From Deinococcota bacterium (GTDB taxonomy: Bacteria > Deinococcota > Deinococci > Deinococcales > Thermaceae), in NCBI GenBank assembly GCA_041695225.1, contig JBGFRI010000003.1, forward strand, positions 86,325 to 150,324: DNA of 64,000 nucleotides, read 5' to 3'. Of the stretch, positions 21,001 through 24,000 are shown piece by piece. Position 1 is the stretch's first letter. Each line of letters begins with the position of its first letter. The position numbers are program-made.

Positions 21001-24000
21001 ACACGCCCACAGCCACAACGCCCGTCCTGAAAGGCGACACCCTGGAAGACCTCCTGGCCCTGGTGGAGCGTCATGGACTAAGCCAGTTGCTAGCCATGTA
21101 CCAGCTGACCAGAGTCTAGGCACAGTTTTTACTAACCCCCATTGCTGTTAGCAATGGGGGTTATCTTTTTTCCGTTTTCCAAGAACCACCTGGTGCCCCT
21201 GTGGTCCGAGACGAGGCTGCTACCGTAACCCGGCTGCACATGCTGTAGACGAACAATAAAAGGGCCAGCCGCTTAGCGGCTCGCAGGCACAGTAAGCGGC
21301 AGGGATTTCTCCCTGCCGCACCTTGTTTAATATGCACTAGTAATACCGGACTATATGCCATAAGGTGTAATATAGTATTATCTATGGCTAAAGTTAGCTT
21401 TGGCAACGATGAGTCTGGACGGGCCTGGGCAAAATTGTTTCGGGTAAAACGCGCAGCGCTCAAATTATCGCGTCAAAAACTTGCTAATACGGTAAATATC
21501 TCACCATCTTTAATTAGTAAAATCGAGAATGGGCTACACGATCCCCGGGATATGAGCATGGGCCGCCTTATGGCTTTCATGCGTGCCTTGCGCATTACGC
21601 CTGAAGAACTTGGCCTCAGCAGCTTTACCGTATTGGTTGGCAGTGGAACTATTACAGTACAAACCTACCCGTCGTTAAATGCCGCATGTGTTAACGAAGG
21701 GGCTGTGCCAGGCTACCTGGATCCCCGTACTCTGCCCCCATCAGGAAACGTTGAGAATTTCTCGCTTGTCCCTTATCTTGCAGCAGTCAACTCTCCTCCC
21801 ATCCTTGTGGCGGAGAACTTACCTCTTAAGGCCGGCTCCTGGCTAATCATTGAGCGTGGCCAGCTAACTGATGACAAATTAACGCTTGGTTACCTGGCCG
21901 AGACCAGACAGCCGATAATTTTCCACTGGCGCTACAACCTCGAACCTACTTTATTGCGCCCGGTAAACGACGTAGGCCAGGTCTACTGGTTGAGACCGGA
22001 CGGTTCCCTCGAAGTGGCTGGCAGCTTTTCCAAGCTACGCCCGCTGATTATTGGGCCAATACACTCCGAAATCCGACACTTTTAACTTTCAATTCCAAGA
22101 TTATGTCCCGCAAACCCAAGCCTCCCAAACCACCCATGATCAGCCCCTCGGGCTTGAAGTACCGGGGCAGCTGGACACCAGCGCTGATCAAGCAGTTTCT
22201 GGGCGAGCCAGACGCCACAGCAGTCAACCCGCACTACCGCAGCGGGCCGCGTATGCAGCTGTATCTCCTCGAGCGGGTGGAGAAAGCGGAAGCCAGCCCA
22301 GAGTTCCAGGAGGCGCTGGTAAAAGCCCGGGCCCGACAGAAATCGGCAGAAAAGGCAGTTCAGACCAGGACAAAGCACACCGTTGCCCTGGCCCGGCAGC
22401 TAGAGCTAACAGTTGAGAAAATACCGCTGGGCATGTTAAAGAAACTGGCAGTAGAGCACTGGCTGGCGTTCAAGAGAGAGCGGGACTGGTACGAGGACCG
22501 CCCACAGCTAGAGCCGTGGGACAAGCCCGATCCTTTCAGAGACCGAATCTGCGTTAACTTCCTGCGCCACCAGGCCAGCGAGTATCACGTCAATCTCGAG
22601 ATTGTCTCGGGTAAAACCGGGATCGGGGAGGCGTACTACATTTTCTGGCAACAGATAGGCGTAGCGATCAAAGAGGCTTATCCGGTTCTTGCAGAGGAGA
22701 TGGATCGCCAGTTTGCCGAGCGTTTTGGAGCAGAGGTTCAGGACAAATCAGGCGCCTGAGTCTTCCTGAGTGGTAAAGCCATGAGAAGCTCAGTGTATGC
22801 AAAGAAGAGCCAGGGGGGTAAACCCTCCCTGGCAACTGCGCCTGTGCCTAGAAGAGGTAGCCGTGGTCGGCCACCTTCCGCACCTGGTATTGCTGGTCGA
22901 AGCACATCCGCTCCGCCAACTCCTGGGCGGAGAGCTTCTTGCCCCGGTCCTCGGGGCGCTGGTTGAGGACCGGGGCAAGGACACCCCGGGCGTAGATGGC
23001 CAGCTCGAGGGGGATCGAGCCGGCCACCACTTTCCCCTCGATGTCCTCGGGCTTCAGGGCCCCGGACTTGACCGGCACAGCCGGAAAGTGCTTCCCGACC
23101 GCCTCGGCCATCTCCGGGGCGAACCCGAAGGCCAGATCCGGGGCCTCCACGGGCCCGGCCTCGACCTGGTAGGTGGCACAACCGGTCACCCGGGTACGCA
23201 GCACCTCCACGGGGAGGTCGGCCTTCACCTCATCCTGGGTCAGCTTCAGCCCCAGGACGGTGACAGCGCCTGCCAGAGCAGCCAGGTCAAGGGGCAGCAC
23301 GCCGAAAACGTGCTTGCCCCGGACCTGATCGGCCGTGGCGTGCTCGAGGACGGGGGTCTTGGTTCTCACCAGCCCGGACTCAATCAGAAGAGCCCGGGTG
23401 CCTTTGTGGCGCGTAACGACAAGTCTTTCCATATATTCTCCTCCTATCACTATTCAGCATACAATACCGTCCGTGCAGGAAAACAAAAATAATGCGAATC
23501 CATCGTCACTGCGTCACCAGACCACTTGTTTCCGCTTTGGAGCGCTACTTATCAATGTGACGCATGGTGACGCAACGCATGGACTGCCGGACTTTCACAG
23601 CGCACTCACCCAGGCTAAGCAAGAAAAGTGAGGTAGGATAGCCTATCTGTGAAATATGACCTTTCACAGATATGCTAATCGGGAGGCCTCCAGTGGAACT
23701 TAGAGTTGGTTATCCCTACGGTAGTCCCGGGCCCCGGCTGCCAGGTGTGGAGCTGCGTCTAAGCGATACCAGCCCTACTCTTCTGATGGTGCTGCCGGAG
23801 TTGCGACAGCAGGAAGTTGCGGCAGTTGCAAAAGGTGAGTGCAGGTTTGGCGTCTATGAGGAGGGCCCGATGCTCTTTTTTCTCTATTGTTTTGATCCGG
23901 TCTTTTCCTGGTCCGATACGCCTTACCACCGGGCACTGGAAGAAGCCCGGCGACCCGTCCAGCTAAGCCTCCTTTCCGAGCGGTCTCGAGCACTGCTGAT

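Follow-up and report, generated by a model that had tools for sequence, protein, structure and literature searches.

The analysed window, a stretch of 64,000 nucleotides (G000:C8:86325-150324) of a contig, C8, of ~150 kb from a heat-loving bacterium, encodes a protein, P0001, that is an intact two-domain member of the Csx16 family. With a probability of about 0.5, P0001 is a single-chain Csx16 ring nuclease with one composite site that acts in trans on the cyclic oligoadenylate (cOA) of the host type III-A system as a ring-nuclease anti-CRISPR. On sequence grounds, such an anti-type-III role is plausible. Csx16 was shown to be a cA4-specific ring nuclease by Hoikkala et al. (PMC12409355; bioRxiv 10.1101/2024.09.24.614671). 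Ring nucleases decide between recovery and dormancy after a type III response, and mobile elements escape through them.

The P0001 gene occupies positions 22848–23432 of the minus strand and comprises 194 codons plus a stop, with its ATG at 23432 and an uninterrupted reading frame. The N-terminal Csx16 domain (residues 1–93; 23154–23432, minus strand) is delimited by a match to a custom HMM over residues 1–92 (2.6e-33), by the alignment and motif table, and by strands and helices at residues 3–93 of the predicted structure. The C-terminal domain (residues 97–189; 22866–23144, minus strand) is delimited by a second match to the same HMM, which was built from 36 single-domain Csx16 proteins, over residues 121–189 (7.2e-14), by the PADLOC match and the motif table, and by β1 and α1 of the predicted structure at residues 100–115. 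Pfam PF09652 (Cas_VVA1548) matches P0001 with an E-value of 3e-14 and 53.4 bits (cut-off 25) in two stretches, the best of which covers residues 5–90, and the PADLOC Csx16 models match residues 5–90 (1.5e-12) and 126–188 (1.2e-7). The two halves of the protein align with each other over 56 amino acids with 30% identity (E 2e-4). The earlier note on this DNA had described a 194-residue protein made of two Csx16 domains; the reading frame, Pfam, PADLOC and the custom HMM agree with it, and its PADLOC values and half-against-half likeness were obtained again with the same figures. The NCBIfam model TIGR02620 reaches residues 5–52 only and stays under its curated cut-off (17.8 versus 46.35 bits). 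A Pfam scan of P0001 at E ≤ 1 gave PF09652 alone, with neither the AcrIII-1 family DUF1874 (PF08960) nor SAVED (PF18145). A homologue with 83% identity is present in another metagenome.

The conserved residues of the family are divided between the two domains of P0001. Among 226 single-domain Csx16 proteins, the residues of a T-R-H motif are conserved at 98% (T), 96% (R) and 98% (H), those of an Arg-Gly motif at 89% (R) and 90% (G), and the Arg-His pair and Arg71, in the numbering of the custom HMM, are present together in 197. The N-terminal domain of P0001 keeps Thr7-Arg8-His9, the most conserved motif of the family (codons at 23406–23414, minus strand), as well as His31, and shows Val69-Lys70 where single-domain proteins show Arg-Gly. 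The second conserved motif, Arg163-Gly164-Lys165 (codons at 22938–22946, minus strand), is found in the C-terminal domain only; here T-R-H is lost (residues 101–105 read AFGFA), and the equivalent of His31 is Gly124. The T-R-H/His/Arg-Gly set is complete in neither domain alone and becomes complete only when both domains are taken together. Because the C-terminal domain lacks the best-conserved residues and TIGR02620 stays under its cut-off, P0001 could be a slow enzyme or a mere binder. The closest Thermaceae relatives of P0001 carry T-Q-H in place of T-R-H.

A similar division is observed in other Csx16 proteins. Two domain matches occur in 21 of 248 retrieved proteins, and in none of these 21 are both motifs present in both domains. 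Three of them were set aside: P0138, a single domain interrupted by an insertion; P0002, a truncated relative of P0001; and P0154, which shares its cluster with P0025. The remaining 18 tandem proteins are mutually related, so that counts among them do not represent independent events. Strictly complementary residue loss is observed in 13 of the 18, with the R-H domain first in seven and the Arg71 domain first in six. The R-H pair is present in exactly one domain in 16 of the 18, and His33 (custom HMM position) accompanies it in 15 of these 16 R-H domains versus one of the 16 partner domains. Since the loss is complementary between domains and recurs in both domain orders, a single composite site is suggested. 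The pseudo-symmetric dimer proposed in the earlier note is thus at odds with the residue pattern, which leaves one set only, and its claim that the covalent fusion is new does not stand either: judged from their sequences, at least 18 further Csx16 proteins or clusters with two domains are publicly available, and the fused form is not unique to this plasmid. In a tree of 36 tandem domains and a random sample of 60 of the 226 single-domain proteins, with the same three proteins left out, the tandem domains fall at scattered places, with the two from P0008 as sisters (no support values displayed), which hints at more than one fusion event, too faintly for this to be claimed.

An AlphaFold2 model of P0001 places the two β/α domains in one packed body with very high confidence (pLDDT 95.6, pTM 0.87). 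For Csx16, a sheet of five β-strands with helices at its flanks is characteristic; in the model of P0001, a β/α pattern occurs twice. Structural comparisons with VIA-align gave weak matches to 2j6c, a Crn2/DUF1874-type viral protein (Z 4.5, rmsd 2.5, 72 residues over 1–91), and, for the whole model, to Csm6-2 (9w3u; Z 3.8, rmsd 4.0, 148 residues) and the SAVED domain of Cap5 (8fm1; Z 3.6, rmsd 5.8, 143 residues); all Z values in this wide comparison are below 5, a level flagged as common by chance. A comparable match for Csx16, to 2J6B with a Z of 4.8, is given in passages of Hoikkala et al. (PMC12409355). A Foldseek search of the model against the PDB returned nothing at E ≤ 1e-3, with the SAVED protein 9r8s at E 0.028, and a sequence search of the PDB with P0001 returned no match at E ≤ 1.

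The contig that carries the gene is probably a circular plasmid. The two ends of C8 fall within one tandem repeat of 72 bp and share 121 bp of overlap, in keeping with a circle, and the window contains the backbone genes ParA/ParB, Rep3, T4CP, and a VirB4-like ATPase. By these backbone genes and the overlap of the contig ends, P0001 is encoded on a mobile element, outside the CRISPR loci of the host. Of the closed plasmid without type III genes put forward in the earlier note, the absence of Cas10 from C8 holds, Cas10 models matching contig C50 only, and the end overlap agrees with closure; the copy number of the terminal repeat is uncertain. No Csm, Cmr or CARF family was found among 45 + 91 scanned C8 reading frames (150 amino acids or more in the window, 110 or more elsewhere). 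C8 is not free of CRISPR genes: it carries a Cas3-less, I-E-like Cascade and two arrays. Membership of Csx16 in this module was rejected, since the Cascade genes (~59.6–63.7 kb of C8) and the Csx16 gene (109.2–109.8 kb) lie ~45 kb apart and a module of the I-E kind uses no cOA.

The P0001 gene carries a predicted promoter/RBS cassette of its own (23440–23475, minus strand). As the earlier note had stated, the gene stands behind the plasmid's GATAGGAGG element, a copy of which lies at 23440–23448, seven bases before the ATG, with a −10-like TATGCT upstream at 23456–23461. There are 12 copies of this element in the window versus 0.64 expected, every copy lies 4–8 nt before a start codon, and a TATAxT-like box is observed 7–10 nt upstream in the aligned copies. 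A generic scan for sigma-70 promoters and terminators gave none around the Csx16 gene, and no run of RNA type is among the 24 sequencing runs listed.

The plasmid is linked to its host by a shared metagenome bin and by co-occurrence in low-complexity runs, of which two small ones, X4 and X14, contain the plasmid stretch and also span the type III-A contig, with coverage in 30/30 bins. The III-A locus on C50 has the order cas10-csm2-csm3-csm4-csm5-ORF-cas6-csx1-cas1, and a second CARF-HEPN protein, on C37, adjoins a type III array of 23 repeats. By its gene content, with a GGDD motif in Cas10 and two CARF-HEPN effectors, the III-A locus of the host bin is signalling-competent. The earlier note had correctly placed a III-A system on C50 and a CARF effector on C37; it had missed the Csx1 of the III-A locus itself, and the C37 protein, which TIGR02710 matches, is a Csx1-type CARF-HEPN protein. 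The nearest solved chain to the C50 Csx1 is the Csx1-Crn2 protein 8y7g (sequence E 2.7e-4), an entry whose title names a cA4 complex; this likeness is the only link of the host to cA4 and a weak one. The same Csx1 matches PADLOC CARF2 models, Csx16 fusions among them, and the CARF-HEPN part of CARF2--CARF_HEPN_CSX16 matches at 3.6e-52. A PDB sequence search with the C37 effector returned Cam1 alone (E 0.28). Searches of the host bin for Csx3, DUF1874, APE2256, SMODS, and SAVED found none.

Neither the 22 type III spacers of the host nor the 28 I-E spacers retained for the comparison include a match to the plasmid. For this reason there is no sign in this host that the plasmid is targeted, and no selective pressure on it is visible here. 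Of the 22 type III spacers, four find a match in an integrated conjugative element on contig C12 (39/39, 38/40, 37/43 and 31/40). The perfect match is in sense orientation and without an anti-tag, its target is an RNase H-like gene of the integrated element, and the element lies in the host chromosome, adjoining chromosomal genes. The host is thereby a natural test bed, its type III array containing a spacer with a perfect match to an element integrated into the host's chromosome.

Csx16 is rare in the family of the host. A Csm1 match over the cut-off is observed in 41 of 68 Thermaceae genomes and Csx16 in four, and in all four the protein has the two-domain form and is encoded on a contig without Cas10, which lies on other contigs. 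In pMESIL02 of Allomeiothermus silvanus, the tandem Csx16 gene lies between T4SS genes, and the T4CP of this plasmid is 75% identical to that of the window. In G013, the tandem gene adjoins a transposase, a serine recombinase, and nucleases; G026 encodes an identical protein on a 9-kb contig with the same reading-frame lengths over the shared part. A single-domain Csx16 is found on pDEIPR02 of Deinococcus proteolyticus among a series of small genes, SSBs included, with no annotated cas gene within 12 kb, and single-domain Csx16 is encoded on 23 IMG/VR viral contigs. Such relatives, whether carried by further plasmids of Deinococcota or by viral contigs, lie outside CRISPR loci. A tblastn search of an isolate-phage collection with P0001 and P0017 gave no match, a scan of viral contigs with P0001 gave none, and the only locus obtained when metagenomes were scanned with P0001 is a distant one (L027, 38% identity over residues 1–60). 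In the ESM Atlas, the nearest entries to P0001 are Csx16 clusters of 92–95 amino acids (scores of 0.88–0.89), whose few taxon-labelled members are mostly viral, a lead only.

The domain architecture, the division of the residues, the plasmid location and the type III inventory of the host are observed; for ligand, cleavage, the composite site in trans and the biological role, we infer the following course of action. The two domains of P0001 would pack against each other as the subunits of a canonical Csx16 homodimer do, creating a single nucleotide pocket, in which the surviving set, Thr7-Arg8-His9 and His31 of the N-terminal domain with Arg163-Gly164 of the C-terminal domain, would constitute a single composite site, since only one of the two symmetry-related sets is left. 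This site may bind cA4 and cut it, probably to a linear product first. The gene would be transcribed from the plasmid's own promoter/RBS cassette, and the target of the protein, acting in trans, would be the cOA that the Cas10 of the host III-A system produces, so that the two Csx1-type CARF-HEPN RNases of the host would stay off. The plasmid and other resident mobile elements would be favoured whenever a type III crRNA matches them, which would amount to the role of a ring-nuclease anti-CRISPR.

The same residue pattern could belong to a cOA sponge or buffer, whose asymmetric pocket binds cA4 tightly, turns it over slowly and neutralises signalling by sequestration. One full conserved set has indeed been lost, the Thermaceae cousins carry T-Q-H, and Csx15, according to passages of PMC13148439, acts well as a cA4 sponge and very slowly as a ring nuclease, and still relieves plasmid immunity when over-expressed. 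We nevertheless regard a sponge as unlikely: the complete set is kept in 13 of the 18 tandem proteins in both domain orders, which looks like selection for catalysis over mere binding, and single-domain Csx16 is an active enzyme in passages of PMC12409355. A change of ligand is a slimmer prospect. Fusion and asymmetry would in this case have produced a single-chain pocket for an odd-numbered or asymmetric nucleotide (cA3, cA5, or another signal) in place of cA4. Against it, the host bin yielded neither a CD-NTase nor a SAVED gene, and the cA4 specificity of Csx16 held at ten-fold higher enzyme concentration in passages of PMC12409355; single-chain tandem CARF or CARF-like pockets are, however, a known route to asymmetric ligands in passages of PMC13187428, where the cA5 bound by Csm6-2 has three of its AMPs on CARF1 and the other two on CARF2, and where cA3 is the ligand of the Cap4 SAVED domain. 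The whole P0001 model does align weakly with Csm6-2 and the Cap5 SAVED domain, in both cases with Z below 5, a range flagged as common by chance.

Cleavage of cA4 by the composite site could also serve a partnership of host and plasmid. P0001 would then supply an off-switch to a III-A locus without a ring nuclease, or tolerance of type III spacers directed against the cell's own integrated element, and would stabilise the plasmid-carrying cell rather than aid plasmid invasion. The 39/39 sense spacer against the C12 element and the lack of any spacer against the plasmid itself are in keeping with this, and the host bin yielded no further known ring-nuclease family, although two of the three absence searches gave no match in any control genome either. 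Silent integrated elements can be tolerated by type III systems without any inhibitor, targeting being transcription-dependent, which counts against a partnership, as does the distribution in Thermaceae, where Csm1 is over the cut-off in 41 genomes and Csx16 is found only in the four with a copy of mobile-element type. Many Csx1/Csm6 proteins, moreover, degrade their own activator, according to passages of PMC12409355, and we hold a partnership to be improbable to much the same degree as a sponge. That P0001 is left over from a type III locus and now decaying, or is a duplicated gene without a present function, is very improbable: the second domain is degenerate and the plasmid bears other CRISPR parts in its Cas3-less Cascade, but that Cascade lies ~45 kb away, the reading frame is intact behind an expression cassette of the plasmid's own, a homologue with 83% identity is found elsewhere, distant tandem proteins show the same complementary residue pattern, and the AlphaFold2 model is very confident.

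A broader proposal, speculative and on balance doubtful, is that tandem Csx16 proteins are a recurrent class of symmetry-broken ring nucleases, in which one of two symmetry-related catalytic centres has been discarded in either domain order, probably more than once. The Csx16 site would be built in trans from the T-R-H/His of one subunit and the Arg-Gly of the other, and the leftover enzyme would cut the ring once or have shifted to an asymmetric ligand (cA3, cA5); in Deinococcota, plasmids and integrative elements would carry it as an anti-type-III weapon. A description of such a class was not found in the literature searched. The "half-knockout" pattern of tandem Csx16 provides a testable map of the active site that names residues which may act together across the dimer interface. 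If the anti-CRISPR reading of P0001 is correct, it provides a Csx16-family example on bacterial plasmids, with relatives that recur on further plasmids of Deinococcota and on contigs of viruses, and widens the anti-type-III tools beyond AcrIII-1 and AcrIII-2.

Similar to the viral AcrIII-1/Crn2 (DUF1874), P0001 is proposed to be a small cA4-degrading enzyme by which a mobile element blunts type III immunity, and the two may share a weak fold likeness (2j6c, Z 4.5). AcrIII-1 forms a symmetric homodimer, in which there are two active sites. P0001 belongs to a different Pfam family, and its role is predicted from sequence, whereas the anti-CRISPR activity of AcrIII-1 has been demonstrated. Both halves of P0001 fall in the Csx16 family (PF09652/TIGR02620), which passages of Hoikkala et al. 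(2025; PMC12409355) describe as stand-alone and in type III loci, and the same T-R-H, His, and Arg-Gly residues are found over the whole of P0001, along with a likeness in structure to DUF1874/Crn2 that is weak in both cases and, for P0001, in a Z range common by chance. The main differences from canonical Csx16, a homodimer (in AlphaFold3 models) of a ~95-residue protein in passages of the same paper, are that P0001 has two domains in one chain with the residues split between them, is encoded on a plasmid far from type III genes, and scores under the NCBIfam cut-off.

AcrIII-2, a viral SAVED ring nuclease, resembles P0001 as proposed here in being a single chain with two CARF-like halves, directed against cA4 signalling and carried by a mobile element of thermophiles; in contrast, PMC12751052 gives it a SAVED fold derived from CalpL, a shared site in which two molecules sandwich cA4, and no sequence kinship to Csx16. 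The tandem CARF-HEPN protein Csm6-2 is likewise the product of a gene fusion, which turned a normally homodimeric CARF protein into a dimer within one chain whose pocket is asymmetric, but as presented in passages of PMC13187428 it is an effector with a non-cleaving CARF pocket, encoded on the chromosome in type III-D loci. Csx15, a small protein of the CARF type, resembles the proposed P0001 in relieving plasmid immunity that depends on cA4 and, perhaps, in acting chiefly through binding; passages of PMC13148439 show it to be of another family and to oligomerise on binding, and state that it is unseen in phage genomes. The Csx1-Csx16 and Csx1-Crn2 fusions (PADLOC model CARF2--CARF_HEPN_CSX16; "Fuse to defuse") show Csx16 working with Csx1-type effectors. 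These fusions are host-encoded and join effector and ring nuclease in one chain, whereas P0001 is the putative ring nuclease alone, duplicated, and on a plasmid.

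The tandem Csx16 gene occupies window positions 22848–23432 on the minus strand as an intact open reading frame of 194 codons, with its ATG at 23432. Its product, P0001, matches the Cas_VVA1548/Csx16 family of Pfam in two stretches (E 3e-14; 53.4 bits, gathering score 25). The PADLOC Csx16 models match residues 5–90 (1.5e-12) and 126–188 (1.2e-7), exactly the ranges and E-values from which an earlier note had described a protein of two Csx16 domains. The NCBIfam model TIGR02620 scores 17.8 bits, under its cut-off of 46.35. A profile built on 36 single-domain Csx16 proteins recognizes two domains, 1–92 (2.6e-33) and 121–189 (7.2e-14), and the two halves of the protein are 30% identical over 56 residues (E 2e-4). 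The AlphaFold2 model, calculated from a 32-sequence alignment, is very confident (pLDDT 95.6, pTM 0.87) and shows one body composed of two β/α domains. The plasmid gene is real and probably functional, and it encodes an asymmetric single-chain form of Csx16.

The asymmetry is visualized in a comparison of 248 proteins, taken from an exhaustive HMMER search (the 150 best of 605 proteins with E≤1e-3) and a profile search that added more. Of these, 226 contain a single Csx16 domain, 21 have two domain hits, and one has none. In the single-domain proteins, Thr9 (98%), Arg10 (96%), His11 (98%), His33 (94%), Arg71 (89%), and Gly72 (90%; HMM positions, n = 226) are conserved, and Arg-His is found together with Arg71 in 197 of 226; none of the 21 two-domain proteins has both motifs in both domains. 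Three proteins were dropped from the two-domain set: P0138, a single domain with a splitting insertion; P0002, a close, N-terminally cut relative of P0001; and P0154, a pMESIL02 protein in the same cluster as P0025. Among the remaining 18, which are related proteins and not independent samples, 13 are strictly complementary: one domain has T-R-H without Arg71, and its partner has Arg71-Gly without T-R-H. The R-H domain comes first in seven of the 13, including P0001, and the Arg71 domain in six. Arg-His is present in exactly one domain of 16 tandem proteins and in neither domain of two, and His33 accompanies it in 15 of 16 R-H domains, compared with one of 16 partner domains. The N-terminal domain of P0001 keeps Thr7-Arg8-His9 and His31, its C-terminal domain keeps Arg163-Gly164-Lys165, and the lost positions are occupied by Val69-Lys70 and by residues 101–105 (AFGFA).

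On the simplest reading, an ordinary Csx16 homodimer would contain two symmetry-related sites, each composed of the T-R-H/His residues of one subunit and the Arg-Gly of its partner; after fusion, only one of the two sites would remain. The proposal that P0001 is a pseudo-dimer has to be amended, as its conserved residues are split between the domains and the two are not symmetric. The fused form had also been put forward as new; it recurs, P0001 being one of the 18 tandem proteins left after filtering. In a domain tree without support values, the tandem domains are scattered and the two domains of P0008 are sisters, which hints at more than one fusion event.

Structural comparisons with the P0001 model are of low significance. 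Foldseek found nothing in the PDB at E≤1e-3, no PDB chain has a sequence match at E≤1, and every hit of an independent structure search has Z <5. These hits include AFV3-109 (2j6c), which we take to be a Crn2/AcrIII-1-type viral protein, against residues 1–91 (Z 4.5, rmsd 2.5, 72 residues); Csm6-2 of Actinomyces procaprae (9w3u) against residues 2–185 (Z 3.8, 148 residues); and the SAVED domain of Cap5 (8fm1; Z 3.6, 143 residues). Comparably, Csx16 matches 2J6B with Z 4.8 in Hoikkala et al. (PMC12409355), where 2J6B is called a viral homologue of Crn2. The weak matches of P0001 fit a CARF-like pseudo-dimer but prove nothing.

The window holds 12 copies of GATAGGAGG (449, 12412, 12688, 14300, 19781, 19924, 23440, 25151, 26539, 51505, 56446, and 56507) against 0.64 expected, every copy lying 4–8 nt ahead of a start codon. 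The aligned copies have a TATAxT-like box 7–10 nt further upstream, and the two elements together resemble a promoter plus Shine-Dalgarno cassette that is used plasmid-wide and has a very short leader. The copy that the earlier note had placed ahead of the Csx16 gene is present at 23440–23448, with TATGCT at 23456–23461 (minus strand); a generic sigma-70 and terminator scan around the gene gave no signal. With its own cassette and a solitary position convergent with the downstream neighbour, the gene has the appearance of an ordinary plasmid gene that is transcribed on its own. Three paralogous ORFs of 384–418 amino acids without a Pfam family (14314–15468, 19938–21119, and 25164–26420) all stand behind GATAGGAGG cassettes, and two of them begin MIEIQ/MIQIR. 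Two of these paralogues, an XRE-type HTH protein (21384–22085), and a tyrosine recombinase (24208–25110) flank the Csx16 region.

The window is the final 64 kb of contig C8 (150,324 bp). According to Pfam, it encodes ParA/ParB, a Rep3 initiator, a type IV coupling protein, a VirB4/TraG-like ATPase, tyrosine recombinases, an orphan Dam-type methylase (D12-class adenine methylase, 8925–9785), and a type ISP restriction enzyme (28586–33394, minus strand). The last, of 1602 residues, comprises Mrr-like nuclease, helicase, coupler, methylase, and specificity domains; two ankyrin-repeat genes lie at 39333–40190 and 41297–42016. Because no relaxase was recognized in the window, "conjugative" applies to C8 by inference only. 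The contig ends overlap by 121 bp, both within one 72-bp tandem repeat, which fits a circle and leaves the copy number of the repeat uncertain. The repeat spans the junction (window 63808–64000, equal to C8:150132–150324, and C8:1–110), with copies at C8:1, 73, 150132, 150204, and 150276; it adjoins no annotated function and may be iteron-like or the cause of the assembly break.

The plasmid had been described as free of type III genes, and the scans agree with this: the Cas10 profiles (Csm1, Cmr2) match only contig C50, and Pfam finds no Csm, Cmr, or CARF among 45 window ORFs of at least 150 residues and 91 other C8 ORFs of at least 110. C8 is not CRISPR-free. A cas6e-cse1-cse2-cas7-cas5 module outside the window adjoins an 11-repeat array (about 58,700–63,700), and a second array of four repeats lies in the opposite orientation (78,332–78,542). 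This I-E-like module, with which no cas3 or cas1/2 was seen, is separated from Csx16 by ∼45 kb, and modules of its type do not use cyclic oligoadenylate. For the 13 spacers of the two arrays, nothing in the bin matches significantly (best 17/18). A further Cse2-like ORF is found at C8:1989–2726.

The host bin (50 contigs, 92% complete) carries a type III-A locus on C50 in the order cas10, csm2, csm3, csm4, csm5, a 155-residue ORF, cas6, csx1, and cas1; cas10 is truncated by the contig end with its GGDD intact. The 155-residue ORF (C50:2735–3202, minus strand) is PIN/VapC-like by eye and has no PADLOC match. On C37, a CARF1-type CARF-HEPN protein (TIGR02710) adjoins a 23-repeat array (61581–63263) whose repeat, read on the minus strand, ends in ATTGAAAC, which we take to be the usual type III 5′ handle; C10 holds a 31-repeat I-E-type array. 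The earlier inventory listed the III-A system and the C37 CARF protein and omitted the C50 Csx1, a 382-residue CARF2-type CARF-HEPN protein. Its nearest solved chains are weak matches, 8y75 (E 1.8e-4) and 8y7g (E 2.7e-4), the latter titled as Marinitoga sp. Csx1-Crn2 in complex with cA4, and its CARF-HEPN part matches the PADLOC model of Csx1-Csx16 fusions; from these two matches, cA4 signalling in the host is plausible. No Csx3, DUF1874, APE2256, SMODS, or SAVED was found in the bin; negatives for PF09620, PF09651, and PF18145 say little because these searches matched no control genome. The sequencing runs with the plasmid stretch carry a groundwater metagenome label. In two small runs among them (contigs of 2.2–2.5 Mb each; one run carries no flag as a possible source), all 30 of 30 bins of the III-A contig are covered, and in two further runs 14 and 7 bins, which adds to binning as support for the plasmid-host link.

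None of the 22 type III and 28 I-E host spacers kept for search matches C8; the best ungapped type III alignment is 28/40, in a homologous gene. For four of these 22 type III spacers there is a match on contig C12, at 59747–59785 (39/39), 87491–87530 (38/40), 82877–82919 (37/43), and 74256–74295 (31/40), the two weaker ones with mismatches largely at every third base. C12 starts with chromosomal housekeeping genes and switches at a Mg-chelatase/ComM-type gene to a long block with a serine recombinase, RepC, a TraG-like ATPase, a coupling protein, an integrase, and DNA-metabolism, restriction, and TIR genes. C12 and C8 have 21 segments (11.5 kb) in common in blastn. The block is read as a putative integrated conjugative element akin to the plasmid. 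The 39/39 target lies in an RNase H-like ORF, in sense orientation and with a 3′ flank that is not anti-tag; the spacer also matches a paralogous ORF at C38:6161–6190 (29/30). The type III system of this lineage has thus sampled such elements more than once, and the genome appears to target itself, which is a textbook situation for an inhibitor. Transcription-dependent type III tolerance of a silent element would explain the self-matching spacers equally well.

Csx16 is found in seven of 364 genomes of the phylum. In the family, taken to be Thermaceae, it is found in four of 68 genomes, in these four always in the two-domain form and with Cas10 on another contig; Csm1 matched in 62 of the 68 and exceeded the cut-off in 41. 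The plasmid pMESIL02 of Allomeiothermus silvanus, whose coupling protein is 75% identical to that of the window, encodes a 261-residue tandem Csx16 flanked by two T4SS genes. Its second, 671-residue protein (NC_014214.1:99–2114, minus strand) adjoins an ankyrin-repeat gene and has Csx16 domains at its start, 2–91 and a partial 160–210 (T-Q-H), followed by ∼450 residues without Pfam. Around the tandem Csx16 gene of genome G013 are a transposase, a serine recombinase, nucleases, and helicases, and its contig also carries a T4CP-like gene; the protein of G026 is identical, and the 9-kb contig of G026 has ORF lengths equal to those of G013 over the common part. The tandem proteins of these three other Thermaceae (L012:9560–10462, L013:4934–5836, and L004:11992–12777) have T-Q-H for T-R-H, at a position otherwise 96% Arg, and Arg-Ala-Ala for Arg-Gly-Lys in the second domain, and may be altered or non-catalytic variants. 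A tblastn search of PLSDB with single-domain Csx16 found two of 72,556 plasmids, pMESIL02 and pDEIPR02 of Deinococcus proteolyticus. The latter encodes a 94-residue Csx16 with all motifs. Its gene belongs to a series of small genes, all pointing one way, that includes three SSBs, DUF4326, a RES protein, a lytic transglycosylase, and RNase HI; within 12 kb, no cas gene is annotated. A scan of IMG/VR with only two peptide patterns yielded relatives on 23 viral contigs (L036–L058, 7.7–321 kb), mostly plain single-domain; the domain hit is split in two in L056 and across two frames in L057. That so many were found with two patterns suggests a higher frequency of Csx16 in uncultivated viruses than in the genomes of isolate phages. 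An isolate-phage collection gave no match, and Hoikkala et al. (PMC12409355) report Csx16 in 2 of 28,114 phage genomes.

The most likely reading, at a probability of about 0.5, is that P0001 would drain cA4 and thereby blunt Csx1-type type III effectors, to the gain of mobile elements. That it is a sponge and not an enzyme is rather unlikely; the T-Q-H relatives may lack catalysis, and P0001 itself keeps T-R-H, His31, and Arg-Gly-Lys across its two domains. A role as an off-switch that stabilises the host, or as a factor for tolerating a self-targeted element, is given the same low weight; in its favour, the matched element is the C12 block, and the host spacers searched leave C8 unmatched. 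A changed ligand is less likely still. In Csm6-2, CARF modules fused in one chain create an asymmetric pocket that accepts cA5 (PMC13187428). That the gene is a remnant is highly improbable, with an intact frame, its own cassette, and a complementary residue pattern that recurs in other tandem proteins.

The general idea of a ring nuclease on a mobile element is already known. Csx16 is described as a cA4-specific ring nuclease present in 69 type III loci (PMC12409355), viruses and plasmids are said to encode ring nucleases able to act as anti-CRISPRs (the Csx15 paper, PMC13148439), and AcrIII-2 is a viral SAVED ring nuclease (PMC12751052). A 2021 review considers the His, Arg, and Asp/Glu residues of Csx16 compatible with catalysis and mentions Csx1 fusions. 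A word search of the Csx16 paper (PMC12409355) found "tandem", "pseudo", and "plasmid" absent from its text, and the literature searched, a scope outside which the 2020 CARF classification paper and supplements fall, holds no description of tandem Csx16. New, as far as searched, are the Deinococcota lineage of Csx16 on plasmids and, in tandem Csx16, the loss of catalytic residues in a complementary pattern.
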